From positions 32,001 through 96,000 of the forward strand of contig CAMTVK010000007.1 of NCBI GenBank assembly GCA_947085185.1: a DNA stretch of 64,000 nucleotides, in the 5' to 3' direction. A model generated the notes under the pieces. That model did no database searches and was not told the origin of the DNA. It saw only the letters and a program-made list of their open reading frames with translations. Shown here one piece after another: positions 4,270 through 47,718 of this stretch. Every line of letters begins with the position of its first letter. Position 1 is the stretch's first letter. Made by a program: the position numbers and the translations under genes. The DNA comes from Candidatus Fraserbacteria bacterium (GTDB taxonomy: Bacteria; Bipolaricaulota; Bipolaricaulia; RBG-16-55-9; DRXL01).

Positions 4270-4839
4270 TCACCCCCTCGCCACCATCTCCAGAAAATAT
4301 TTGTGCACTCTGGGATCGCCTGTCAATTCGGGATGGAAGCTGCTTGCCAAAAGATTTCTCTGGCTCACCAGCACGGGAGCGCCATCATGCTCTGCTAAGA
4401 TTTCGACGGCTGATCCCACGCGCACGATCTTGGGAGCCCGAATGAAGATCGCGTGAAACGGCCCAATATGCTTGATCTGAAGATCAGCTTCGAAGCTGTC
4501 GCGCTGTCGTCCATAGGCGTTTCGCTTTACTGAGATGTCCATCAAAGCTAAGCGATTCTCCGGATAGGAATCGTTCAGTTCGCGCGCTAAGAGAATCATT
4601 CCCGCACACGTCCCATAGATGGGGAAGCCCCGCGCGCCGCGCTCGCGTAAGACCGAGAGCATCCCTGTCTTCTCCAACAGATACGCTATCGTCGTGCTCT
4701 CGCCCCCGGGGATGATCAAGCCGTCGATCTCGTCGAGCTGAGAGCGCGTGCGCACATCGAGGGCGTCCACTCCCAGCGAGCGCAAGACGCTCAAGTGTTC
4801 GCGAAAATCCCCTTGCAAGCCGAGCACTCCAATGCGCAT
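4270..4839 (-). CDS. pdxT: PLP synthase glutaminase subunit
   Basis: MRIGVLGLQGDF, PGGESTT, GTCAG, FHPEL; start reassigned to 4839. Confidence 0.95.
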   Translation of the reverse strand: MRIGVLGLQGDFREHLSVLRSLGVDALDVRTRSQLDEIDGLIIPGGESTTIAYLLEKTGMLSVLRERGARGFPIYGTCAGMILLARELNDSYPENRLALMDISVKRNAYGRQRDSFEADLQIKHIGPFHAIFIRAPKIVRVGSAVEILAEHDGAPVLVSQRNLLASSFHPELTGDPRVHKYFLEMVARG

Positions 4840-4843
4840 GGCG

Positions 4844-5731
4844 TCAGTTCCCACGCACTTGCAGAAGCTCCCTCTCGCTGAGCTGAGCCGCGCTGATGCT
4901 GCGCATCGGCTCACCCAAGCCCTCGGAGACTTCTGCCAAGACCTTGGGGTCAGTATAGTACGTCGTGGCTAAGACGATGGCGCGCGCGCGTCTTTCTGGG
5001 TCTTCAGACTTAAAAATCCCTGAGCCGACAAAGATCCCATCGCACCCCAGCTGCATCATCAGGGCAGCATCCGCAGGGGTGGCGATCCCTCCCGCAGCGA
5101 AGTTGACCACCGGGAGCCGTCCCATCTCTTTAATGAGTCTCAAAACCTCGACAGGCGCGCCCCACTCCTTGCCCAATGAGACCAACTCTTCATCGGAGGC
5201 CTGACGCACGAGGCGCATCTGTTTATTCATCAAGCGCATATGGCGAACAGCTTCGATGACATCGCCGGTGCCGGCCTCGCCCTTGGTTCGGATCATCGCG
5301 GCGCCCTCAGCAATGCGCCGACACGCTTCGGGAAGATCGCGCGCCCCGCAGACGAACGGCACTTTGAATCGCCATTTGTCTATATGATTCTCAGGGTCAG
5401 CCGGCGTGAGCACCTCAGATTCATCAATATAGTCCACGCCCAGAGCTTCGAGAATTTGAGCTTCGACGAAGTGTCCGATGCGGCACTTGGCCATGACAGG
5501 GATCGTGACCGCGTCCATAATCTCTTTAATTTTTTTGGGGTCCGCCATGCGAGCTACGCCCCCAGCAGCGCGAATGTCCGCGGGGACGCGCTCCAGCGCC
5601 ATCACGGCCACAGCACCGGCCTTTTCGGCGATCACGGCTTGCTCCGCGTTGACCACGTCCATGATGACGCCACCTTTGAGCATCTCTGCCAGCCCAGACT
5701 TGACCTTAAACGTCCCGGTGAGTCGTTCCAT
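4844..5731 (-). CDS. pdxS: PLP synthase lyase subunit
   Basis: [29 protein letters not shown]. Confidence 0.97.
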
Positions 5732-5949
5732 AAGCCCTCCCTTCAAGAGAGTATCAGCTCCATTATACTGGGGCTATAGGAAGACGCAAGGCTCTTTGAG
5801 CGGGGCGCTTGCGGCAAGACAGCGCGCACGTACCCGGGCGTCGTCCCCATCCCCACGGGACAGGCGTCCTTGGAAGCTCCTCAAACTGCTCACACAATAG
5901 CACCAAGCCATTGTGCTGGCAAGCCATCACACCTGGACGAGGTGAGAGG

Positions 5950-28388: not shown

Positions 28389-30650
28389 ATGGATCGGAAA
28401 ACTATCAAGATTCTTCTCTTGAGTTTGGGAGTCTTCAGTCTCTTGGTGAGTGCCCCTCAAGCTCAGACCGAAAATGTCAAATTCCAGATCGTCATTATCT
28501 TAGACGGCTCAGGCAGCATCTCTAACCAAGACTTCAAGACGATGGTCGAAGGGATCGCCAAGAACCTCGAAGAACCTGGGGTCGTCCCGCGCAACGGCAC
28601 GGTCGAGTTCGGATTAGTGCAGTTCTCCAGCAACTTGCGAGATCAGCGCTTCGATGTCGTCGGCGCTGCCGTAGAGGTCCCCATGACGGTGATCACCGAG
28701 ACGAGCGTGACTACTGTTATTCAGCGAGTGCGCGCCACAATCCAAGCTGGGGGATTTACCCCGCTGGTATCGGGAATTCAATTGGCTACGAAGATGGTCA
28801 CTCAAGACGCCCGTGCCGCAGCAAGCCAGATCTTCAATATCATTACTGATGGGAACCCCAATCTGCCCGGAGGGCGTGAACAAGCCAAGCAAGCCGCTCT
28901 CCAAGCCCGCGATGAGGCGGTCGCCGCGGGCGTCGATCAAGTGGACGCGGAGGGCATCGGTGATGCTCTCGCCGAGCAAGACTTCGTCAATTTCTTGCTT
29001 CAGCTCGTCTGGCCCCAACCGGGAGTGCTTGTGCAAAATGGACAATTCCCTCCCAAAGGAAAGAATGGGTTCGTGATCATGGCTCGGACATTCGCCGATC
29101 TGGAGCGAGCTCTCCGGCAGAAACTCATATTTATCTTGAACCAGTCCCCTGTGGCCGACCCCGGCCCAATCCCAGACGGCAAGCCCGACAAAGACCCCTA
29201 CACATGCACCACTGGGGAGACGATCACCCTCGACGGCTCAGGCTCGTTCGACCCCGATGGCCCCATCGCAAAATATGAGTGGGACTTCGACGGCGACGGC
29301 AAACCCGACGCCACCGGACCCAAAGTCAGCTTCACCTGCCCCGCTACCCCAGGGAGCGTCACTATAACCCTCACAGTCACCGACAGCGCCGGAACGACAG
29401 CGACCGCCCAGCAGACTATTACCGTGAGCCAAGCTCCACCATCTAACCAACCTCCGACAGCCAACTGTGGTACCGTCCCCGCAGAAGTCCTCGTGGGCCA
29501 GACTGTACAGTTAGATGGCTCAGGCTCTTCTGATCCTGAAGGAAAGACCTTGACCTATCAATGGGCGTTCGTGAGCAAGCCCACCGACAGCCAAGCCGTC
29601 ATCGAGAACCCCACCAGCGCGACGGCGTCGTTCAAGGCCGACAAAGAGGGCCCTTACACGGTGAAGCTGTCTGTCACCGACCCTGAGGGCGCAAGCGCCT
29701 CGTGCACAGTTTCCGTCACCGCGAAGAAGCTCGCCCCAGGAGGTCGCGAGGAGCTGGGCGCCATGAAACGCGATATTATCGAGCATGGGCGCACACTCAG
29801 GCTCTCTAAGCCCCTGGAAGATCTGCGATTGGCGCTCAACTTGGTGAAGAGCTTCGGTGCTCTGTCGTCAGCGCGCCAACTCATCAGCCAGACCCAAGAG
29901 ACCGTCAACGAGCTGCTCGTCTCACTCGCCGATACACGGCTGCTGATGGAATCCCTGGCACAGCGAGCTGAAGGAGTGCGCTTCCAAGTCGACGCCTTCG
30001 TCGAAACCAATACGATCAGCACCGAGCGCGCCAATCGTATCTATAAGAGTATAGATGCGCTGATCGCGCTCACCGATGGCGCTGGCGATTCTCTTGACGA
30101 GATCGAAACGCTCATCAATGATGCGCTTGATCTCTTAGCTGAAGCCAGTGACGCTCTAGGAGCGTCGGGAGCGCTGGCCGTCGAGCCCGCCCCCATCGCA
30201 GCGATGTCACCGTCAGAACTGATCCAGAGCGCTCGCGATAAGCTCGTGATGGCCTTTGCCCAATGGCGCGCCCTGCTCAATGGGGCCATCGCGCGCATTG
30301 ATAAAATCTCTTCACAGATGCGCGCAGCACTCAAGCTCGCGGAGCGGCGCAACCGCTTCCGGCTCGTCAAGCCCCAAGAGTTTATCACCCTGAACGCCCT
30401 CGGACAGACGGTACGCTTTGTGCCGAGCGCGCTGCGCTGGAGCGCACACAATTGTCAAGGGTGCTCTCTGAAAGTCACCGTGTACGGGTTAGATGGGCGG
30501 CGTCTCGTCGAGCAAGAGAGCGCCGGACCGACACTCACCCTACACTGGAGGCGCACCCCCGCTAACGGGCTCTACTGGTACGTGCTCACCATCACCAGAC
30601 CCGATGGGCAGCAGACCCAGCTCGTGAGCAAGTTCGTGCTGCTGCGTTGA
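28389..30650 (+). CDS. secreted vWA plus 2x PKD plus helical region protein with a C-terminal sorting-like domain
   Basis: Signal peptide; MIDAS DGSGS..T..TDG; PKD repeats LDGSGSxDPxG..YxW; tail VYGLDGR..NGLYWY..KFVLLR. Confidence 0.8.
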   Translation: MDRKTIKILLLSLGVFSLLVSAPQAQTENVKFQIVIILDGSGSISNQDFKTMVEGIAKNLEEPGVVPRNGTVEFGLVQFSSNLRDQRFDVVGAAVEVPMTVITETSVTTVIQRVRATIQAGGFTPLVSGIQLATKMVTQDARAAASQIFNIITDGNPNLPGGREQAKQAALQARDEAVAAGVDQVDAEGIGDALAEQDFVNFLLQLVWPQPGVLVQNGQFPPKGKNGFVIMARTFADLERALRQKLIFILNQSPVADPGPIPDGKPDKDPYTCTTGETITLDGSGSFDPDGPIAKYEWDFDGDGKPDATGPKVSFTCPATPGSVTITLTVTDSAGTTATAQQTITVSQAPPSNQPPTANCGTVPAEVLVGQTVQLDGSGSSDPEGKTLTYQWAFVSKPTDSQAVIENPTSATASFKADKEGPYTVKLSVTDPEGASASCTVSVTAKKLAPGGREELGAMKRDIIEHGRTLRLSKPLEDLRLALNLVKSFGALSSARQLISQTQETVNELLVSLADTRLLMESLAQRAEGVRFQVDAFVETNTISTERANRIYKSIDALIALTDGAGDSLDEIETLINDALDLLAEASDALGASGALAVEPAPIAAMSPSELIQSARDKLVMAFAQWRALLNGAIARIDKISSQMRAALKLAERRNRFRLVKPQEFITLNALGQTVRFVPSALRWSAHNCQGCSLKVTVYGLDGRRLVEQESAGPTLTLHWRRTPANGLYWYVLTITRPDGQQTQLVSKFVLLR

Positions 30651-33291: not shown

Positions 33292-33987
33292 TTATGGAAT
33301 GTCTCTCTGTTTCTTACGCTCTTTGCGCCCGGTCACCATATACAGAGTGCGTTCGGCGATGTTGACGGCGTGATCGCCCACGCGCTCCAGATCACGAATG
33401 GACCACAAGACGGGAATGACATCGTCCACGAACTCTTTCGCTTCGGCAGGAGAGTGCGCTTCACGAGCCAGTTCGAGGAGCTTGGCCAACACCCTGCGAC
33501 GCAATTGCCAACACCGTTCGTCCATCTGCGCGTCGCGCTGAATGATCTCCTGAGCGCGTGGGGTGTCTTTGGCCACGAAAGCGCTCACGGAATCGCGCAG
33601 CATCTCGCGGGCAAACTCCCCCAGAGCCGTCAGCTCTTCTTTTGGGACGAGCACGAAGACCCCTACGTCCATCCCATATTGGCCGACGTTCACCGCAAGA
33701 TCTGCGGCGCGCTCCAAGTCCGTGATGATCTTAAAGACGCTCGTGATCACGCGCAGATCTATAGCGACGGGCTGTTGCAGCGCCAAGAGATCCATACACT
33801 CCTTCTCGATGGCGAGATTGAGCTCATCCACTTGGTCATCCCAAGCGTCGAGGCTTTCGGCCAAGGCGCGGTCGTGCTCGCGCAGGGCTTTCAAGCCCAG
33901 ATCGAGCCCTTCTAAGACTTTCTCGCCCATCTCGCGCACCGACTGCGTCAGACGCTCCAACTGCTGCTTATAGCTTTCGCGAACCAT
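33292..33987 (-). CDS. phoU: phosphate signalling protein PhoU
   Basis: QQPVAIDLR, DLERAAD, LERVGDHAVNIAE; start reassigned to MVRESY. Confidence 0.95.
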   Translation of the reverse strand: MVRESYKQQLERLTQSVREMGEKVLEGLDLGLKALREHDRALAESLDAWDDQVDELNLAIEKECMDLLALQQPVAIDLRVITSVFKIITDLERAADLAVNVGQYGMDVGVFVLVPKEELTALGEFAREMLRDSVSAFVAKDTPRAQEIIQRDAQMDERCWQLRRRVLAKLLELAREAHSPAEAKEFVDDVIPVLWSIRDLERVGDHAVNIAERTLYMVTGRKERKKQRDIP

Positions 33988-33997
33988 GAGCTCTATT

Positions 33998-34813
33998 TTA
34001 CCCAAATTTGCCCGTGATGTAATCTTCGGTCTCTTTTTTGTCTGGGGTCTCAAAGATTTTTTTCGTGGGCCCGTACTCGATCAGGCGCCCCAGATACAGA
34101 AACGCTGTAAAATCCGAGACGCGCGCGGCCTGCTGCATATTATGGGTCACGATCACGACGGTGTAGCGCTCTTTGAGCTCGAGCATCAAGTCTTCGATCT
34201 TCGCCGTAGCGATGGGATCAAGAGCCGAGCAGGGCTCGTCCATTAAGATCACTTCGGGCTCGATAGCCAACGTGCGCGCGATGCACAAGCGCTGCTGTTG
34301 CCCTCCCGACAGATCATACCCGCTCTTTTTGTGTAAATAATCTTTGACTTCGTCCCACAGGGCTGCAGCGCGCAGCGCGCGCTCGACGTGCTCGTCTAAG
34401 TTCCCCGTAAAGCCGTTAATGCGCAGCCCAAATGCGACGTTCTCGTAGATAGACTTGGGGAAGGGGTTGGGCTTCTGAAAGACCATCCCGATTCTCCTGC
34501 GGACCTCGACGGGGTCCACATCAGGGTCATAGATGTTCTTGCCGTGATAGAGCACTTCCCCACTGAGGCGCACGCCGGGGACGAGATCGTTCATGCGATT
34601 AAAACACCGGATGAGCGAGCTCTTGCCGCATCCTGACGGCCCGATGATCGCGGTGATCTTGTTCTTGGGGATGTCAAGGGTGATCGAATCGAGCGCTTGC
34701 TGTTTGCCGTACCAGAGGCTGAGCTGGCGCACCTGCAGAATAGGCTCCCCAGCGAAGTCGTTGGGGGAGATGCGAGCCTGCGGGCGCGACTGAGAGACTA
34801 TCGTCCTCTCCAT
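33998..34813 (-). CDS. pstB: phosphate ABC transporter ATPase
   Basis: [34 protein letters not shown]. Confidence 0.97.
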
Positions 34814-34817
34814 CGAG

Positions 34818-36233
34818 CTACCACCTCCTCTGAAATCGTATTCGTAAGAAGATCGCCAGGCCGTTCATCGCCAAGAGAATACTTAAGAGTACTAAAATCG
34901 CCGCGGCGGCGATGGTGGCAAAGCCGTCTTTCGCTTCGCCGATCCACGTGAAGATCTGAATGGGGATGACCGTGAAGTAGTCGCGCAGCCCGGGGATGAA
35001 CGTCAAATACTGAAAAGCTCCAAGCAAGATGAGCAGGGCCGCCTCGCCCATAGCCCGCGAGAGCGCGATAATCAAGCCCGTCAAAATCCCAGGCAAGGCG
35101 TAAGGCAACACGTGAGCGCGCACGACCTGCCAGCGCGTCGCTCCCACCGCATAGGCAGCATGACGGATCGAATCGGGGATGGTGCGCAGTGCCTCGCGAG
35201 CCGCAATGATCACCATCGGCAAGATCAAGAGCGTCATAGTCAGCGCACCGGTGATGAGCACGCGATCCATCTGGAGCGCGCGCGCTAAGATCTCCAGCCC
35301 GATGATCCCGTAGACGACCGAGGGCACGCCTGCAAGATTGACAATCAACAGCTGAATGAGATCGGTCAGCCAATTCTTGGGAGCGTACTCTTCCAGATAG
35401 AGGGCTGCGCCCACTCCCAACGGCAGGGCAAAGAGCGCCGTCAGCCCCACTAAATAGAACGACCCCACGATGGCGCTGGCCAGCCCTGCTTTTTCGGGGG
35501 AGTTGGAGTCGAAGCTCGTGAGAAACTCCCAGATAGCGCGAGCCCAACTGCGCGTGATGGGGATCTGGGCGGTCTGCTCGGCGTCGAGCATAAGTGTCAC
35601 AAGTTCTCCATCGCGCTCAACTTGCACGGTCAACGGAGCTGGCCGGGGCTTCTTCTGGGCCGCGACGATGAGCGCCTCCCAGGCTTGACGTGATCCGGTC
35701 ACGGCAATATCTTCGATCCGGACTAAAAGATCGCCGGGACGCAATCCCGCACGCCATCCCACGCTCTCTTCTGGCAAATAATCTATAGCGATGCGCATGG
35801 CGCCCGTCTGTGGGTCCATCTGGGGCACAAGATCCCCAAAGATCTGTGAGGGATCGCCGGAGATCCAGCCGACCGGGAGAGTATTATGAGGCCAGCGCGC
35901 CATGACATCCCAGACATGCGCTGAGCGAAAGACCGTCTCTGAACCGATATGGATGACCGCGTCGAATTCACTTATCCCTGAGCGGGCCGCTGCGCTCTCC
36001 GGGAGAAAATCCGTCACGATGACGTAGGGGAGATTTTGGGCATCCCATTGGATGACCATGGTGGAGAGCACAAGGCCCGCCCGCGAGGCCGCGCGCATCG
36101 CCATGAGCGGGCGCGCATTGACCAGAATATAGACGATCAGGGCGAGCAGCGCGGCGAAGCTCACGAGAAGTGTGCTGAAGGTGAGCGCGCCAAAGAGCGT
36201 GCTTTTGGTCTTGCGCCACACAAGTGAGCTCAT
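34818..36233 (-). CDS. pstA: phosphate ABC permease PstA with extracytoplasmic tandem PDZ-like insertion
   Basis: [23 protein letters not shown]; ~170-aa insertion after TM1. Confidence 0.9.
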
Positions 36234-37153
36234 TCGTATCGCTCCCGGAAGCGACGCACGATCCCATAGCTCAAGATATTCAAAAAGAGCGTCATCACAA
36301 AGAGCAGCGCGCCGATGGCGAAGATCGTGGCCCAGATGAACGCGCCGGCTTCGGCATCCCCCGTGGCAACGTTGACGATGTGCACGGTCAGGGTCTCCAA
36401 GGGCTTCAGCAGATCCGGGGGCCAGGTGGGCACCCGCCCCGCAGCAATCGCCACGATCATCGTCTCGCCGATGGCTCTGGACATCGCTAAGATAGTCGCT
36501 GCGGCGATCCCTGAGAGCGCCGCAGGCAGCACGACGGAACGAATCGTCTCGTATTTGGTCGCGCCAAGAGCATACGCGCCCTCACGGAGCTCCCGCGGCA
36601 CCGCATAGATAATATCTTCGCTCAGCGACGAGACCAACGGGATGATCGCGATCCCCAGCACGATCCCCGCGCTCAGGGCGTTCCAAAACTGAATCTCCGG
36701 GAGGATCGAGCGCAGAGCCGGCGTCACAAAGAGCAAGGCAAAATATCCATAGACGACCGTGGGGATGCCCGCTAAGATCTCCAAGAGGGGTTTGGCGATC
36801 TTCCGGACGCGCTCTGAAGCGAATTCGCTCAGATAGATGGCGCCAAGCAGCCCGATGGGGAGAGCCACAAGCAACGCGATCCCTGTAATAATCAGCGTGC
36901 CAGCGATCAACGGCAGGGCGCCGTAGGACGGGGTCGAGATATCAGTAGGGGCCCAACGCGTGCCCCATAAGAATTCCCCTAGAGAGACTTTGGCAAAGAA
37001 GATCCCAGAGCCAGAGAGCAGAAGCCAGATGGTGACTCCCGTGACGACCACAGCGAAGAACGCACAAGCGAAGAGCACCCCCTGGATGAGCCGCTCTTTG
37101 AGATACCGTCCTGGGGGCGCGTGCAGCGCGGGCCGGGTCGTTGTCAGCTTCAT
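36230..37153 (-). CDS. pstC: phosphate ABC permease PstC
   Basis: LEILAGIPTVVYG, SRAIGETM. Confidence 0.95.
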   Translation of the reverse strand: MKLTTTRPALHAPPGRYLKERLIQGVLFACAFFAVVVTGVTIWLLLSGSGIFFAKVSLGEFLWGTRWAPTDISTPSYGALPLIAGTLIITGIALLVALPIGLLGAIYLSEFASERVRKIAKPLLEILAGIPTVVYGYFALLFVTPALRSILPEIQFWNALSAGIVLGIAIIPLVSSLSEDIIYAVPRELREGAYALGATKYETIRSVVLPAALSGIAAATILAMSRAIGETMIVAIAAGRVPTWPPDLLKPLETLTVHIVNVATGDAEAGAFIWATIFAIGALLFVMTLFLNILSYGIVRRFRERYE

Positions 37154-37282: not shown

Positions 37283-38431
37283 TCACTTGCAGTGTTCGCC
37301 GTATTTCTTGCGGATCTCTGGGAGAGACAAGCCGGAGTAGTTGCCGCCGAAGGCCGTGCCGGCAATGCGCTTCTTCCAGCAGGTGCGGGCCTCCTCGCGC
37401 ACCTCGCGTGGGACGGGAAGATATCCGGCTTTGTTGAGCATAAACTGCTGATTGCCCAAACGAGCCTCATCAAGATAGAAGTTAATGAAGTCGTCCACGG
37501 CGGGGCGCTCCCCGCTCTTCTTATTGACATAGATGAAGAGCGGGCGACTCAGCGGCTGGTAGCTGAACGCCAAGATCGTATCTACCGTGGGCAGGACGCC
37601 CTTGCACTGGCCGCCCTTGTTTTCGAGAGGCTTTTTGCCGTTCTTGGCGCGCCGAGCATTGAGCTCTTTGAGGACGTCTTCCGGGGCGCTGATCAGATCG
37701 CGGCGCGGGTCGAGCGCTACAGCTTGCACAAACTGGGTATTGTGCACGAAGAAGTTATACCCAAAGTACGTGAGGGCATAGGGGTTGTTGCCGGTCTGTT
37801 GAGCCAAGAGCTGGTCTTCTTCGGTGCCGAAGTAATCTTGTCTGGTGTCGCCCTCTCTCCCGTTGATCGCCGACGTGAAGAAGTCAAAAGTTCCGGAGGT
37901 TTCGGCGGCGCCGGAGAGCGTGATCTCCGCGTTGGGGAAGGTGCTGCGCACCTGGTTCCATTTGGTGATGAATTTTTCTGATTCTTTGGCCCACAGCAGC
38001 TCCAGCTCCCCCACGGTCATGCAGACGGGAGCGGTGCCGAAGATCTTTGTATCTTTGCTGACGGCCACGGTCAGGCCGTCCAGAGCAATCAGAAGCTCAA
38101 TATACTCGATAGCGTTCTTCGCTGCCGTCTCGATCTCAGATGCTTTGATAGCACGCGAGGCGTTGCTGATGTCGGTCTCGCCGACGACGAAGCGCCGAAA
38201 GCCTCCCGACGTCCCACTGACGGCTACAGTGACGTTGATATCGGGTCGGACTTTTTTGAACGCCTCGGCCATGGCCTTGGTGATTGAGGCGGCGGTGCTC
38301 GAGCCATCGGAGAGTATACTCTTTGAATCTTTGGGGGCCCCAGGCTGCCCCACCACCGACAAGACGACCGAGCCGACGACCAACCACGCGACGAATGCCA
38401 CGCGTCTCACTAGAGATGCGCTAAATTTCAT
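37283..38431 (-). CDS. pstS: phosphate-binding protein PstS
   Basis: DGSST, SGTSGGF, DISNASR, SGTFDFF, YQPLSRPLFIYVN. Confidence 0.93.
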   Translation of the reverse strand: MKFSASLVRRVAFVAWLVVGSVVLSVVGQPGAPKDSKSILSDGSSTAASITKAMAEAFKKVRPDINVTVAVSGTSGGFRRFVVGETDISNASRAIKASEIETAAKNAIEYIELLIALDGLTVAVSKDTKIFGTAPVCMTVGELELLWAKESEKFITKWNQVRSTFPNAEITLSGAAETSGTFDFFTSAINGREGDTRQDYFGTEEDQLLAQQTGNNPYALTYFGYNFFVHNTQFVQAVALDPRRDLISAPEDVLKELNARRAKNGKKPLENKGGQCKGVLPTVDTILAFSYQPLSRPLFIYVNKKSGERPAVDDFINFYLDEARLGNQQFMLNKAGYLPVPREVREEARTCWKKRIAGTAFGGNYSGLSLPEIRKKYGEHCK

Positions 38432-39283: not shown

Positions 39284-40855
39284 TCACCCTTCGATGAGTC
39301 TCTTGCGGATGCGCGCGCTCAGAAAATCAATAGCCATCACGGTGGGGATGATCACGACCAGACAGATCCCCACAATGTTCCATGCCCGGTACGATTGCGC
39401 TTCGTTGATGAGCGACCCGATCCCTCCGGCCCCTACGATGCCCAGCACCGACGCGGCCCGAACGTTGATCTCAAATCTATAGAGAAAGAGTGCCAAGAAT
39501 TCGGGAAGCACCTGGGGCAAGACCGCATAGCGAAAGACCTGCACCCGAGATGCTCCCACCGACTGAAGCGCTTCTACGGGCTCTTTGCGAATCTTTTCGA
39601 CGATCTCGGCATTAAATTTCCCCAGCATCCCGATGGAGTGAATGGCGATGGCCAAGACCCCCGGCAGCGGCCCTGGCCCAAACGTCGCAATGAAGAAGAT
39701 CGCCAGGATCAATTCGGGAAAAGCCCGAATGATATTAGGGATCTGCTTCATCCCCATCGCGATGGACTGAGGCACCCCCACATGGCGCCGCGACGCCAAA
39801 AACCCCAAGGGCAACGACAAGAGAAAACTGATCGTCGTGCCCACCAGCGCGATCTGTAAGGACTGCACCATGCGCTGCACAGCTAATTCAAAAAACTCGG
39901 TGGCCGGATCGGTCACGATCGCCCACAGAAGATTTCGAAAATATTCGATCCCGAGAACCAGCCGAGCGAAGTCCACCTCCAGTGACACAAAGGACCACAC
40001 GATCACAGCACCAGCGACACTCGAGCCAAGAAGGCGCAGCGGGCGCGGCAAGACGATCCCATGTACGAACGCATCGCGCATGCGGTTGGCTATGAGGTCA
40101 ATCACGATAACCAGCGCGAAGATCAGCAGCGCGATCGTCAAGACTTGGGGATAGTTGCGCCACTCCATAGCCGTCGTCAGCTGCATCCCCATGCCCCCCG
40201 CCCCAACATACCCCATCACTGCCGAGACGCGCACATTGAGCTCAAAGACATAGATGACATGATCGACAAACGCGGGGATGAGTTGGGGCAGCACGGCATA
40301 GCGAATGACGTGGAGCCTGCCCGCGCCCACGGCTTCGACCGCTTCGATGGGCTTGGGATTGATATTGTCCGCAGATTCGGAAGTGAGCTTGGCGATGATC
40401 GCACAGGCGAAGAACGAGAGCGCCCCAACCCCGGCCGCCGGCCCAAACCCCATAGCCGCCACAAACAAGACCGCATAGAGCAAATCAGGGATGGTGCGCA
40501 GGACGTTCATAATCGTGCGCACCGGCCAATAGATCAGAGCGCTGCGCACGACCAGTTGTGACCCAAAGACGACCAACGGCAAGGCCAGGAGCGCCCCAAA
40601 GAACGTCCCCAAGGTCGCCATCTGGAGCGTCTGCAGCAGCGGACGCACTAACTGCGGGAGCGCTGAAAAATCCGGGGGATACATGCGCCCCAGCAGCTCA
40701 AAGAACCTCCCGCCGTACTTCACTACAGAGAAGAGATCGAACTCGACGCCTTGGAGCGCCCACCCATAGAGGGCAATGAGCAGCGCTATCCCAGCCCATG
40801 CCCCCAGGCGCCTCAACCCAACCGCCCGCCTAGCCCCCTCCGTCCACTGTACCAT
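39284..40855 (-). CDS. phnE: phosphonate/phosphite ABC permease, fused double PhnE
   Basis: Two permease repeats (RTIPDL/RAFPEL; ELNVR..G.VGAGG twice); start uncertain. Confidence 0.88.
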   Translation of the reverse strand: MVQWTEGARRAVGLRRLGAWAGIALLIALYGWALQGVEFDLFSVVKYGGRFFELLGRMYPPDFSALPQLVRPLLQTLQMATLGTFFGALLALPLVVFGSQLVVRSALIYWPVRTIMNVLRTIPDLLYAVLFVAAMGFGPAAGVGALSFFACAIIAKLTSESADNINPKPIEAVEAVGAGRLHVIRYAVLPQLIPAFVDHVIYVFELNVRVSAVMGYVGAGGMGMQLTTAMEWRNYPQVLTIALLIFALVIVIDLIANRMRDAFVHGIVLPRPLRLLGSSVAGAVIVWSFVSLEVDFARLVLGIEYFRNLLWAIVTDPATEFFELAVQRMVQSLQIALVGTTISFLLSLPLGFLASRRHVGVPQSIAMGMKQIPNIIRAFPELILAIFFIATFGPGPLPGVLAIAIHSIGMLGKFNAEIVEKIRKEPVEALQSVGASRVQVFRYAVLPQVLPEFLALFLYRFEINVRAASVLGIVGAGGIGSLINEAQSYRAWNIVGICLVVIIPTVMAIDFLSARIRKRLIEG

Positions 40856-41615
40856 AGATGTCTTCTTCAAAGGTCTCGCGGTTGATCTCGGTGATGGGCT
40901 TGTCGTAGATGACCCGCCCGCCCTTGAGCCCGATGATCCGTCGGCCGTATTTGAACGTCAAGACCGGATCGTGCAAATTCACAATCGTCGTGATGCCCTC
41001 GTCTTCGTTGATCTTCTTAAAAATGCTCATGACGACGTTGGCCGTGATGGGGTCAAGTGAGGCGACGGGCTCATCAGCGAGGATGAGCTTAGGTCTTTGC
41101 AGCAGGGCGCGGGCGATCCCCACGCGCTGTTTCTGGCCGCCCGACAGCCGCGCCGCACGATCGAGATGGCGCAGTTGTGGAATCCCCACGCGCACCAGGG
41201 CGTGGTGCGCTCGCTCGATCTGATCCGCTGGGAACCTCCCCAGCAGAGCGCGCCAAAACCCCACTTGCGTGAGCGACCCCACAAGAGCGTTGGTCAACAC
41301 CGGCAGCCGCTCCACGACGTTATACTCTTGAAAGATGAAGCCGATGCGCGAGCGGATCTCGCGGAGTCTGCGAGAAGAGACACGCAGCACATCGGTGCCC
41401 TCGAAGTAGATCTCGCCCTCGACACGCGCATGATCGTTCTCCGTCAGACGATTGATCGCGCGCAAGAGCGTGGATTTCCCTGAACCTGAGACCCCAGCGA
41501 CGACCACAAACTCTCCTGGATAGATCTCTATATTGACGTTGTCGAGGGCTTGGACGGGGCGCACCCCTGGGTAGATCACGGTGAGGTTGCGTATGCGCAA
41601 GATAGGCGCAGCCAT
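40830..41615 (-). CDS. phnC: phosphonate ABC ATPase
   Basis: GVSGSGKSTLLRAINRL, LSGGQKQRVGIARAL, ADEPVASLDP, NLH. Confidence 0.9.
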   Translation of the reverse strand: MAAPILRIRNLTVIYPGVRPVQALDNVNIEIYPGEFVVVAGVSGSGKSTLLRAINRLTENDHARVEGEIYFEGTDVLRVSSRRLREIRSRIGFIFQEYNVVERLPVLTNALVGSLTQVGFWRALLGRFPADQIERAHHALVRVGIPQLRHLDRAARLSGGQKQRVGIARALLQRPKLILADEPVASLDPITANVVMSIFKKINEDEGITTIVNLHDPVLTFKYGRRIIGLKGGRVIYDKPITEINRETFEEDIYGTVDGGG

Positions 41616-41692: not shown

Positions 41693-42718
41693 TTACTGAT
41701 TCTCGCACTTGGCCAGGTTCGGCTGGATCTCTTTCGCGACGACGCGCACCGCTTCGAGAGCTTTGAGCATATCATAGCCCTCGGGGACGGGGACAAAATC
41801 GGTCGCGTCGAGCGCGTCCTTGGCGTATTTCTTGCCCTCTTCGGTCTTCATGATCTCGACGAACGCCCGTTTGATCGCCTCGCGCAGCTTGGCATCAAGG
41901 GCTTTGATGGCCACGACGCCATCGTTGGGGATGTCATCGCTATAGCCGATGACACGGACCTTGGTGCTGGGCTCGGGATCACCGGGTTTCCAGCCGAGCT
42001 CTTTTTTGGTCTGCTCGGTGTTGAGGCTCTCGCGCACATCCTCGAAGCCCGCGCCGACGTCCACATCTCTCTTATAGACAGCAATTGCTGAAGCCAAGTG
42101 ATTGGCCGCGCGGATCGTCTTGAAATTCTTGTAATCCCCCGGCAGAATCCCCAAGTCTTTGAGAGTCTTACACGGGAAGAGAAATCCTGATGTCGACGTA
42201 GAGCTGCCGCCGTAGCTGAACCGCACGGGAGCTCCAGACCTCACCAGACTCACTAAATCATCCTTGGGGTCCTGGTTGTCATCCTTGAGGGCTTTGAGGG
42301 GGCTATCTACGTGCACCATGAACTGGGAGCGGAACGTGAGCTTATCGCCGCGCTTGGTGACGCCAATGGGGATCGCTCCGTAGCTATCGATCACCTGAAC
42401 GATCTGAAACGGCCCCAACAACCCAATATGAATCTTTTCTGCACCGATGGCTTCGATGGTCGCGGTGTAGGACTCGGGGATGACGGCGCGCACGCGCTTC
42501 ACTTGCGAGAACCCGTTCTTCTGGACATAGTCGAGGACAAGCTTGGCCAACCCTTCGACTGGGGGCTGCAAGATCGTGGCCGCTCGCGACGGCACCATGC
42601 CCACGACGAGCTCTTCAGGGATCAGCCCCTGCTGCGACGCCCCAGGGAAGCTCACCCCAAAGCTCCCTACCAACACCCCGACCACCACCACCCCCGCCAG
42701 ACCGACAAGACGACGCAT
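41693..42718 (-). CDS. phnD: phosphate/phosphite/phosphonate-binding protein
   Basis: Signal peptide, STSTSGFLFP, IPNDG. Confidence 0.85.
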   Translation of the reverse strand: MRRLVGLAGVVVVGVLVGSFGVSFPGASQQGLIPEELVVGMVPSRAATILQPPVEGLAKLVLDYVQKNGFSQVKRVRAVIPESYTATIEAIGAEKIHIGLLGPFQIVQVIDSYGAIPIGVTKRGDKLTFRSQFMVHVDSPLKALKDDNQDPKDDLVSLVRSGAPVRFSYGGSSTSTSGFLFPCKTLKDLGILPGDYKNFKTIRAANHLASAIAVYKRDVDVGAGFEDVRESLNTEQTKKELGWKPGDPEPSTKVRVIGYSDDIPNDGVVAIKALDAKLREAIKRAFVEIMKTEEGKKYAKDALDATDFVPVPEGYDMLKALEAVRVVAKEIQPNLAKCENQ

Positions 42719-46700: not shown

Positions 46701-46728
46701 GCAGCAATCACGATAGATGGGAGAAGCT

Positions 46729-47718
46729 ATGGAGACCCGAAGAGTGCAGATCACCGGCGGCGCAACGTTCATGATCACGCTGCCTAAAGAGTGGGCAGAA
46801 GCGCAAAAACTCCATGCGGGCGCGGAGATCGAGCTCCACCCCCACGACCCCGATCTCTTGATCTTACGCCCGCATCGTGACTCCAAACCCACACGGGGGG
46901 TCTTGGCCCTCGACGCCAAGACGGGCGATGCCCTCATGCGCGCGTTCATCTCGATGTACGTCGCAGGCTTCGATATCATCGAGGTGCGCGGCGAGCGCAT
47001 CACCCCAGAACAACGCCAGACCATCAGAAAAGTCACACAAGCCCTCATCGGTCCGGAGATCATGGAAGAATCCCGAGATTCGATCATCATTCACAATCTG
47101 CTCAACCTCGCTGAGCTCTCTGCCCCCAAGACGCTCGAGCGCATCTTCCTGATGGTGCACGACATGTTCGCCGACGCGGTGCGCGCCGCGGCAGAGCACG
47201 ACGCCGAGCTGGCCCACGACATCGTGGCCCGCGATGAGGACGTGGACCGGCTCTATCTCATGCTCTATAGACAGTTTCGCATCGTCCTGCGCGATCTGTT
47301 GGCTGAGGAAGCCGCGGGGGTCAGTCGCCTCAAGCTCTTTGATATCCACACCGTGGCGCGCCAGCTCGAGCGTGTGGCCGATCATGCGGTCAAGATCGCC
47401 CATGTGACGACGTCTCTGGAGGAGGCGCCTCCCCTCAAAGTCGCCGAGGCCTTGCGCAAGGGCGGCGACCAGGTCAACACACTCTTGCGAGAGTCTGTAG
47501 AGGCGTTCCGCACGGCCACCCCCACCCTCGCCAGTCAAGTCATCGACACCGCTTTAGGGATGGAAGAACGCCTGAGAAAGGCCGTCAAACTCCTGTGGAA
47601 CTTGGACCCTCACGAAGCTCAGCTCATCGGGATCGCCTTCGACAGCATCGGGCGCGTCAAAGACTATTCGATCAACATAGCCGAAACGGCCCTCAACACA
47701 TCAGTCCCCATGCCCTAG
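46729..47718 (+). CDS. archaeal-type phosphate regulator (AbrB/MazE DNA-binding domain plus PhoU repeats)
   Basis: METRRVQITGGATFMITLPKEW (AbrB-like), YVAGFDII, RDEDVDRLY, LERVADHA, RVKDYSINIAE. Confidence 0.88.
   Translation: METRRVQITGGATFMITLPKEWAEAQKLHAGAEIELHPHDPDLLILRPHRDSKPTRGVLALDAKTGDALMRAFISMYVAGFDIIEVRGERITPEQRQTIRKVTQALIGPEIMEESRDSIIIHNLLNLAELSAPKTLERIFLMVHDMFADAVRAAAEHDAELAHDIVARDEDVDRLYLMLYRQFRIVLRDLLAEEAAGVSRLKLFDIHTVARQLERVADHAVKIAHVTTSLEEAPPLKVAEALRKGGDQVNTLLRESVEAFRTATPTLASQVIDTALGMEERLRKAVKLLWNLDPHEAQLIGIAFDSIGRVKDYSINIAETALNTSVPMP

Follow-up and report, generated by a model that had tools for sequence, protein, structure and literature searches.

Among the high-affinity phosphate importers of bacteria, PstSCAB is the main one. 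Genes for such a system are located in a stretch of 64,000 nucleotides, referred to here as the window, from the genome of a Candidatus Fraserbacteria bacterium of the phylum Bipolaricaulota (GenBank assembly GCA_947085185.1, contig CAMTVK010000007.1, positions 32,001 to 96,000). They are arranged in the order pstS-pstC-pstA-pstB-phoU, all on the minus strand, with the start of pstA and the stop of pstC overlapping as ATGA (Table 1), and PstS, PstC and PstA are each named by NCBIfam above the family cut-offs. The permease PstA of this operon is unusual in that, according to profile searches and structure models, it carries two PDZ domains in tandem in its first extracytoplasmic loop. The genome, 1.72 Mb in size and 96.8% complete, encodes a single PstA above the cut-off of TIGR00974, the PstA family model, and the PDZ-type PstA belongs to the sole Pst system of the genome.

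Table 1. Genes of the pst operon and parts of their products, with positions in the window
Feature	Position	Strand	Remarks
pstS	37283..38431	-	382 aa; long-type phosphate-binding protein with signal peptide, without lipobox
Clade-specific PstS insertion	37601..37708	-	about aa 242-277, ends at Cys276; comparison with outgroup and 4jwo
pstC	36230..37153	-	307 aa, ordinary length; TIGR02138, 271.9 bits, above cut-off
pstA	34818..36233	-	471 aa; TIGR00974, above cut-off
PstA, first transmembrane segment (TM1)	36120..36194	-	about aa 14-38; hydropathy peak aa 11-46, AlphaFold2 helix aa 2-38
PstA, PDZ1	35856..36077	-	about aa 53-126; AlphaFold2 elements, VIA-align, Pfam in orthologues
PstA, PDZ2	35559..35843	-	about aa 131-225; Pfam PDZ_6, VIA-align; motif TG(S/T)RQAWEA on long helix
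PstA, helix and P1-loop tip	35481..35546	-	aa 230-251, including near-invariant P246 and E247; hhalign to E. coli PstA
PstA core, TM2-TM6	34821..35480	-	aa 252-471; BPD_transp_1, Foldseek
pstB	33998..34813	-	ATPase; Pfam ABC_tran, 104.3 bits
phoU	33292..34053	-	Pfam PhoU, 146.3 bits, two stretches

The lengths of PstA, 471 amino acids (aa), and of the neighbouring PstC, 307 aa, are those given in an initial annotation of the window, which had drawn attention to the size of PstA and had proposed two PDZ-like domains, resembling those of HtrA and RseP, in the loop after TM1. The region marked there, 35574 to 36086, corresponds to aa 50-220 of PstA, and both repeats on which the proposal was built are present in the translation (aa 71-101, and aa 148-178 together with 201-210). 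TIGR00974 scores 222.1 bits on PstA, with a cut-off of 193.45, and the match to this 272-position model is confined to aa 234-468; the Pfam domain BPD_transp_1 is detected at aa 270-454. The core resembles E. coli PstA (9k3x_A) in a Foldseek comparison, with an E-value of 2e-11 and a TM-score of 0.69 normalised on the target over 227 columns. About 190-200 extra residues are placed between TM1 and TM2. Since TM1 extends over about aa 11-46 in the hydropathy profile and is followed by the next membrane segment at aa 249-280, the insert is located in the first extracytoplasmic loop, as had been proposed.

For the second repeat, Pfam reported PDZ_6 at aa 155-189 with 30.2 bits, above the cut-off of 27, while PDZ_2 reached 25.5 bits on PstA, below its cut-off of 27. 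The first repeat was matched by PF00595 alone, at aa 68-101, with an E-value of 0.02 and 15.7 bits, below the cut-off of 23.2. In orthologues, the first repeat exceeds the Pfam cut-offs: P0060 shows PDZ_2 with 50.2 bits at residues 85-123 and P0063 shows PDZ_6 with 63.2 bits at residues 42-81. Two PDZ stretches each were found by Pfam in the orthologues L025 and L028. Structure prediction gave a consistent picture. An AlphaFold2 model of the whole PstA, based on an alignment of 20 sequences with 41-86% identity, had a mean predicted local distance difference test score (pLDDT) of 80.7, with 88-94 in the blocks of the insert; the insert modelled alone (19-sequence alignment) reached a pLDDT of 92.6 and a predicted template modelling score of 0.87. 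The elements E55-63, E66-75, H81-84, E92-96, H104-113 and E118-124 make up PDZ1 in the AlphaFold2 model.

Structural searches with the insert pointed to the same fold. In Foldseek, the tandem PDZ domains of DegQ were the top match (E-value 3e-9), and PDZ1-PDZ2 pairs of DegQ and DegP together with PDZ tandems of RseP led the results. In VIA-align, all 50 matches listed, the best of 48,161 chains, were PDZ proteins. PDZ2 was superimposed on PDZ1 of DegQ with a Z-score of 11.9 and a root-mean-square deviation (rmsd) of 2.6 Å over 89 aligned residues; PDZ1 gave Z-scores in a middling range of 7.0-7.7, with 68-84 residues aligned in the range of model residues 8-97. HtrA of C. jejuni covered both PDZ domains with a Z-score of 10.5. 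HtrA and RseP, whose PDZ signature had been recognised in the initial annotation, thus supply the best fold matches; they are the best matches of the insert by sequence, too. By these scores and models, the insert is made up of two genuine PDZ domains in a tandem fold.

The insert shares with the tandems of HtrA (DegP/DegQ) and of RseP/site-2 proteases the bacterial-type PDZ pair, and with RseP also the placement in a loop on the extracytoplasmic side of a polytopic membrane protein. It differs from both by the lack of a protease domain, by a transporter as host and by another orientation of the two domains to each other (rmsd 8.8-15 Å over both domains). No match to Peptidase_M50 (PF02163) was obtained with Pfam in the PstA of the window, where the insert is flanked by TM1 of PstA and the BPD_transp_1 core. 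A known N-terminal extension of PstA, DUF3333 (PF11812), is like the insert in being located upstream of the BPD_transp_1 core, but Pfam detected no match to it at an E-value of up to 1 in this PstA. With no such match, the insert does not belong to that extension family. On the PstA of locus L035, DUF3333 gave a sub-threshold match of 16.7 bits that covers aa 16-79 and lies outside the PDZ region.

A related arrangement was noticed in P0066, a PstA of 602 aa from a metagenome and a relative of the L026 protein. Upstream of PDZ2 it shows weak matches to PPIC-type rotamase (parvulin) domains at aa 103-209, with an E-value of 0.0035, below the cut-off. Judged by this match, P0066 may represent a form of PstA in which the same loop accommodates a chaperone-like domain.

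The position of the insert could be defined relative to the contacts known from E. coli. An hhalign comparison with a probability of 99.75 paired aa 236-464 of the PstA of the window with residues 63-290 of E. coli PstA. Within this alignment, aa 236-251 correspond to E. coli residues 63-79, the tip of the P1 loop including its PPP run, and the end of PDZ2 is therefore located about 20 residues before the P1 tip. The insert is part of the P1 loop and directly precedes a tip that is homologous to the PstS-contacting tip of E. coli. In P0108, an ordinary PstA from a sister group, TM1 is separated from the equivalent helix by a short loop only. In the 2026 cryo-electron microscopy structures of E. 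coli PstSCAB, as described in the accessible part of the source, the N-lobe of PstS sits on PstA, the P1 and P3 loops of PstA reach into the PstS cleft, and PstS is in contact with Pro71 and Pro73 of P1; without nucleotide, the complex was transient and needed cross-linking (PMC12976172). Operon order, a homologous PstA core and a conserved P1-loop tip are common to E. coli PstSCAB (PDB 9k3s, 9k3x, 9k3y; PMC12976172, same part) and the system of the window. However, E. coli PstA has 296 aa and a short P1 loop, whereas about 190 residues with two PDZ domains follow TM1 in the window, and the PstS of the window, a member of another subfamily (TIGR02136), contains an insertion of 28 aa.

The partner protein PstS was identified by Pfam PBP_like_2 (111.9 bits) and TIGR02136 (211 bits, above the cut-off). 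Its sole hydrophobic segment, according to the hydropathy profile, is located at aa 5-32. The first cysteine is residue 137, so that, in agreement with the initial annotation, there is no lipobox. The PstS encoded in the PDZ-type loci obtained from the phylum (L021-L035) is 42-69% identical to that of the window in all 15 cases. Among 14 loci of the same phylum with an ordinary PstA, eight have an adjacent PstS, but these are 275-302 aa long as open reading frames (ORFs) and 23-30% identical to the PstS of the window. A metagenome scan with the long PstS yielded 31 loci. In 22 of them the contig extends into the 5' part of pstA, and every one of the 22 has the PDZ insert; the other nine contigs end before that part. 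In these data, the PDZ-type PstA is always encoded beside a distinct long PstS.

Compared with seven PstS proteins of other phyla (38-54% identical), the long PstS shows an insertion of 28 aa at about aa 245-272 and another of 4 aa at about aa 133-137. The 28-aa insertion is absent from five of the seven outgroup proteins, while P0210 keeps a few residues of it and P0202 has it. The closest solved relative, 4jwo, lacks profile positions 245-272. All PstS proteins found beside a PDZ-type PstA possess the 28-aa insertion. The cysteines 137, 276, 351 and 381 covary across 31 long-type PstS sequences: twelve have all four, 18 have none, and the protein of L035 has the first pair only. This pattern predicts disulfides 137-276 and 351-381, which would have been lost together by whole sublineages. 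From the covariation of Cys137 and Cys276, the two clade-specific insertions are predicted to be neighbours in space; from that of Cys351 and Cys381, the C-terminal tail of PstS is predicted to be pinned by a disulfide in the type found in the window. The E. coli PstS residues Y198, Q201 and N202, which touch the P1 and P3 loops of PstA, map to F227-N231 of the window protein, about 11 residues before the 28-aa insertion, in a profile alignment of low confidence (probability 1.6%, E-value 0.032). A helix and tail of about 40 aa at the C-terminus of PstS were also considered as a candidate for a trait specific to PDZ operons. This was rejected, as they are common to PstS proteins of about 330 aa from Thermomicrobium, Acidobacteria, Proteobacteria and others.

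The distribution of PDZ-bearing PstA proteins was determined by several searches. A word-based search with the insert retrieved 57 proteins with 66-100% identity, whose names point to Bipolaricaulota. HMMER, applied to 1.84 billion representatives, detected 40 proteins at an E-value of up to 1e-3, among them six PstA-PDZ fusions and four fragments of such fusions. The remaining 30 are RseP-type (ten) and HtrA-type (three) proteins, other proteins with multiple PDZ domains, and P0067, which has a weak phage-capsid match only. In the phylum itself, the insert was matched in 47 of 184 Bipolaricaulota genomes, in 36 of them over at least 190 of its 201 residues. Two more carriers were recognised, G086, in which the gene is split over two contigs, and G092, a weak match confirmed by Pfam on L035. 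In total, a PDZ-type PstA is present in about 38 of the 184 genomes. Since 107 of these genomes contain a PstA at an E-value of up to 1e-30, about 38 of 107 have the PDZ type and the others the ordinary one. A scan of 185,579 species genomes with a 10-sequence alignment of the insert, which detects only proteins bearing the motif GTRQAWEA and does not show absence elsewhere, revealed 16 loci. By title, nine belong to Bipolaricaulota, two to Acetothermia, two to Fraserbacteria and three to automatically labelled metagenome-assembled genomes, one of which is the same contig as that of G090, a member of Bipolaricaulota.

A maximum-likelihood tree of the PstA core with 50 rows placed all 19 PDZ-type proteins in one clade with a support of 96/95. 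P0117, which at first appeared as an ordinary PstA inside this clade, was rejected as such, being a fragment that starts inside PDZ2. Sister groups of the PDZ clade are ordinary PstA proteins of about 290 aa, some of them named Ardenticatena, and the ordinary PstA proteins of the phylum itself are separated from it by a long, fully supported branch. Because the PDZ-type proteins form one well-supported clade, the insert, as judged from the tree, arose once, in one operon lineage. In 21 pairs of sequences within the genus, the ratio of nonsynonymous to synonymous substitution rates was 0.07-0.18 in the insert, compared with 0.04-0.08 in the core; by these ratios the insert is under purifying selection.

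Other PstA proteins with additional residues were encountered. P0133, P0137, P0151 and similar proteins comprise about 600-660 aa, and their PstA-like C-terminal half is about 48-52% identical to the core of the window protein. Some of them are named PstC/PstA fusions, and one is from a Thermoplasmatales archaeon; in the PstA core tree they branch as sister of the bacterial group to which the PDZ clade belongs. In family f9 of the phylum, represented by L064 of G071 (PstA ORF at 4474-5751), the PstA ORFs encode about 425 aa with a contiguous match to the PstA model. Pfam finds no domain in their extra N-terminal residues, about 160 in number, which may represent another extension or an over-long ORF call. 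A PstA cluster in the ESM Atlas, with 374 aa, PF00595 on 40% of its 58 members and Bacillota as the commonest phylum, contains one PDZ domain compared with two in the window. As no single-PDZ PstA of Bacillota was among the 40 proteins matched by HMMER with the insert, an independent insertion is likely in that group.

A paper on PstA proteins with PDZ domains was not found in the literature searched, which has few subscription journals, and the architecture, which the initial annotation did not recognise from characterised Pst systems, may be considered undescribed to this extent. It is visible in precomputed Pfam annotations and in protein names such as 'PDZ domain-containing protein, partial'.

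What could be the role of the PDZ pair? Tandem PDZ domains are protein-binding modules, which was taken as support for a docking role, and the position in the P1 loop together with the constant pairing with a distinct PstS makes a link of the insert to PstS plausible. With somewhat less than even confidence, we propose that the PDZ pair is an extra docking platform which captures or holds the long-type PstS of the operon, in the manner of the P2 loop of MalF. Located on the P1 loop, the pair would probably touch PstS at or near the 28-aa insertion and not via the PstS C-terminus. Such a contact would raise the occupancy of PstS on the transporter, which in turn may help a cell with a large, toga-like periplasm. 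The model for this proposal, MalF P2 of MalFGK2, is likewise a domain with a fold of its own, about 185 residues long and part of a periplasmic loop in the permease of an importer of the ATP-binding cassette (ABC) type; according to the accessible part of the source it binds the N-lobe of MalE with a dissociation constant of 7-22 µM and remains bound through the cycle (PMC6906923). It differs in having an immunoglobulin-like fold and in being located between TM3 and TM4, whereas the PDZ pair is located between TM1 and TM2, and the two are not related in sequence. Binding to the cognate protein has been shown for MalF P2, while for the PDZ pair we infer it.

Several observations weigh against this proposal. 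The pairing of PDZ-type PstA with the long PstS goes back to a single origin and may reflect shared descent rather than co-adaptation. A location of the 28-aa insertion near the docking face of PstS is a hint, taken from the profile alignment of low confidence described above. The C-terminal helix and tail of PstS are, by sequence comparison, shared with the PstS proteins of about 330 aa from other phyla and are not specific to the clade. Nor does the C-terminus of PstS look like an obvious peptide ligand: only 14 of the 31 long-type proteins have L or F as last residue, and in the type of the window a disulfide is predicted to pin the tail. In a conservation profile of 31 sequences, the most conserved parts of the insert are the loop glycines before the first strand (A52-G53 in PDZ1; G133 with L135 in PDZ2) and the long helix of PDZ2 with RQAWEA. 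Conservation of G53, G133 and this helix suggests a ligand of the peptide type. In P0066, finally, the parvulin-like match in place of PDZ1 would point towards chaperone-like roles.

A PDZ tandem in a periplasmic loop of a membrane protein is also a property of RseP, whose tandems are among the fold matches of the insert (7w6x and 3wkl in Foldseek; 7w70, 7cqc and 9j83 in VIA-align) and whose type provides ten of the 40 HMMER matches. The accessible parts of two sources treat the RseP tandem as a size-exclusion element (PMC7728848; bioRxiv 10.1101/2022.01.31.478169). In PstA, the tandem could accordingly cover the periplasmic face of PstCA as a lid or filter and control which proteins or which PstS state gain access to the translocation path, or it could stabilise PstC-PstA without specific binding of PstS. 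Both versions appear unlikely to us, since transport requires docking of PstS on both PstA and PstC, so that a lid on P1 would have to move in every cycle, and since the clade-specific insertion in the PstS of the operon would be left unexplained. A similarly low probability is assigned to the idea that the PDZ grooves bind unfolded proteins, or the C-terminus or an internal strand of an envelope protein other than PstS, for instance one of the outer membrane or periplasm, and serve as a scaffold that links the importer to another structure or couple phosphate uptake to the state of the envelope in the way of the DegS PDZ domain. The conserved loop glycines and RQAWEA helix would fit such a ligand, as would the weak parvulin-like match beside PDZ2 in P0066, and the nearest PDZ folds are those of HtrA-family proteases, which bind C-terminal peptides. 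Yet the conservation of the groove is judged from sequence only, and the operon consists of nothing but pstSCAB-phoU in 15 of 15 loci, without a conserved gene for a candidate ligand. Gating of transport by the PDZ pair, also raised in the initial annotation, is possible.

Very improbable, in our view, is a PstS whose C-terminal tail is held in a PDZ groove: the L or F ends of 14 of the 31 sequences, often accepted by PDZ domains, and the missing lipid anchor would suit it, but the last residue is K in the window and K, S, Q, R, E, L or F across the clade, the all-or-none covariation of Cys381 with Cys351 predicts a pinned tail, and an outer membrane makes a tether for retaining PstS unnecessary. 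The lack of a lipobox had been an argument in the initial annotation for tethering PstS. The genome encodes Lgt, LspA and a BamA-like protein (E-value 1.7e-34, below the family cut-off, as in the Thermus and Thermotoga controls), and a monoderm cell in need of a PstS tether was rejected on these grounds. The accessible parts of three sources describe for this phylum a Thermotoga-like, toga-like outer membrane with long polar extensions (PMC6092417; bioRxiv 10.1101/2025.11.21.689855; bioRxiv 10.1101/2021.05.31.446380). With an outer membrane a soluble periplasmic PstS is expected, so that the missing lipobox is weak evidence for a tether. Many ordinary PstS proteins of the phylum likewise have no cysteine in the signal region. 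Of the earlier suggestion that the PDZ pair acts on PstS, the link to PstS has therefore become plausible through loop position and co-occurrence, while docking of the PstS C-terminus is left without support.

The docking platform may also be seen as part of a larger design. The PDZ pair and the PstS insertion might together act as a hard-wired device for capture, by which PstS stays on the transporter permanently, a 'phosphate bindosome' in a very large toga-like periplasm, and the P1 loop of PstA might be a recurrent socket for capture modules, with two PDZ domains here and one in Bacillota. This wider proposal is speculative, and we consider it rather doubtful.

The surroundings of the operon contain further genes with a connection to phosphorus. 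The gene next after the operon encodes a low-molecular-weight phosphatase. Upstream, genes for a haloacid dehalogenase (HAD) hydrolase and for a phosphonate ABC transporter were identified, the latter with a PhnD-like binding protein, an ATPase and a fused double permease. The fused permease (39284-40870, minus strand), directly upstream of the pst operon and adjoining the ABC ATPase gene, is a PhnE-like protein of 528 aa with two BPD_transp_1 stretches; the phosphonate-binding protein is encoded in the same cluster at 41693-42718. On the plus strand, 46717-47718 specifies a protein of 333 aa in which a DNA-binding domain of the AbrB/MazE type is joined to a PhoU domain. PhoU-like ORFs of about 350 aa were also seen on the opposite strand near the pst loci L023, L025, L035, L055 and L057 of the same phylum. 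At 28389-30650 (plus strand), a protein of 753 aa is encoded in which PKD/Ig-like repeats come after a von Willebrand A domain; it is probably a protein of the surface or envelope.

The PDZ-type PstA marks one operon lineage, which provides the sole Pst system in many Bipolaricaulota, a phylum whose abundance is linked to low phosphate in the accessible part of PMC6092417. In E. coli, PstS binds the transporter weakly and transiently, as stated in the part of PMC12976172 referred to above. If the proposed role is correct, the PDZ-type PstA might make it possible to obtain a stable PstS-PstCAB complex for structural studies and, together with the remodelled PstS, would be a test case for how capture of a binding protein tunes the efficiency of an ABC importer.

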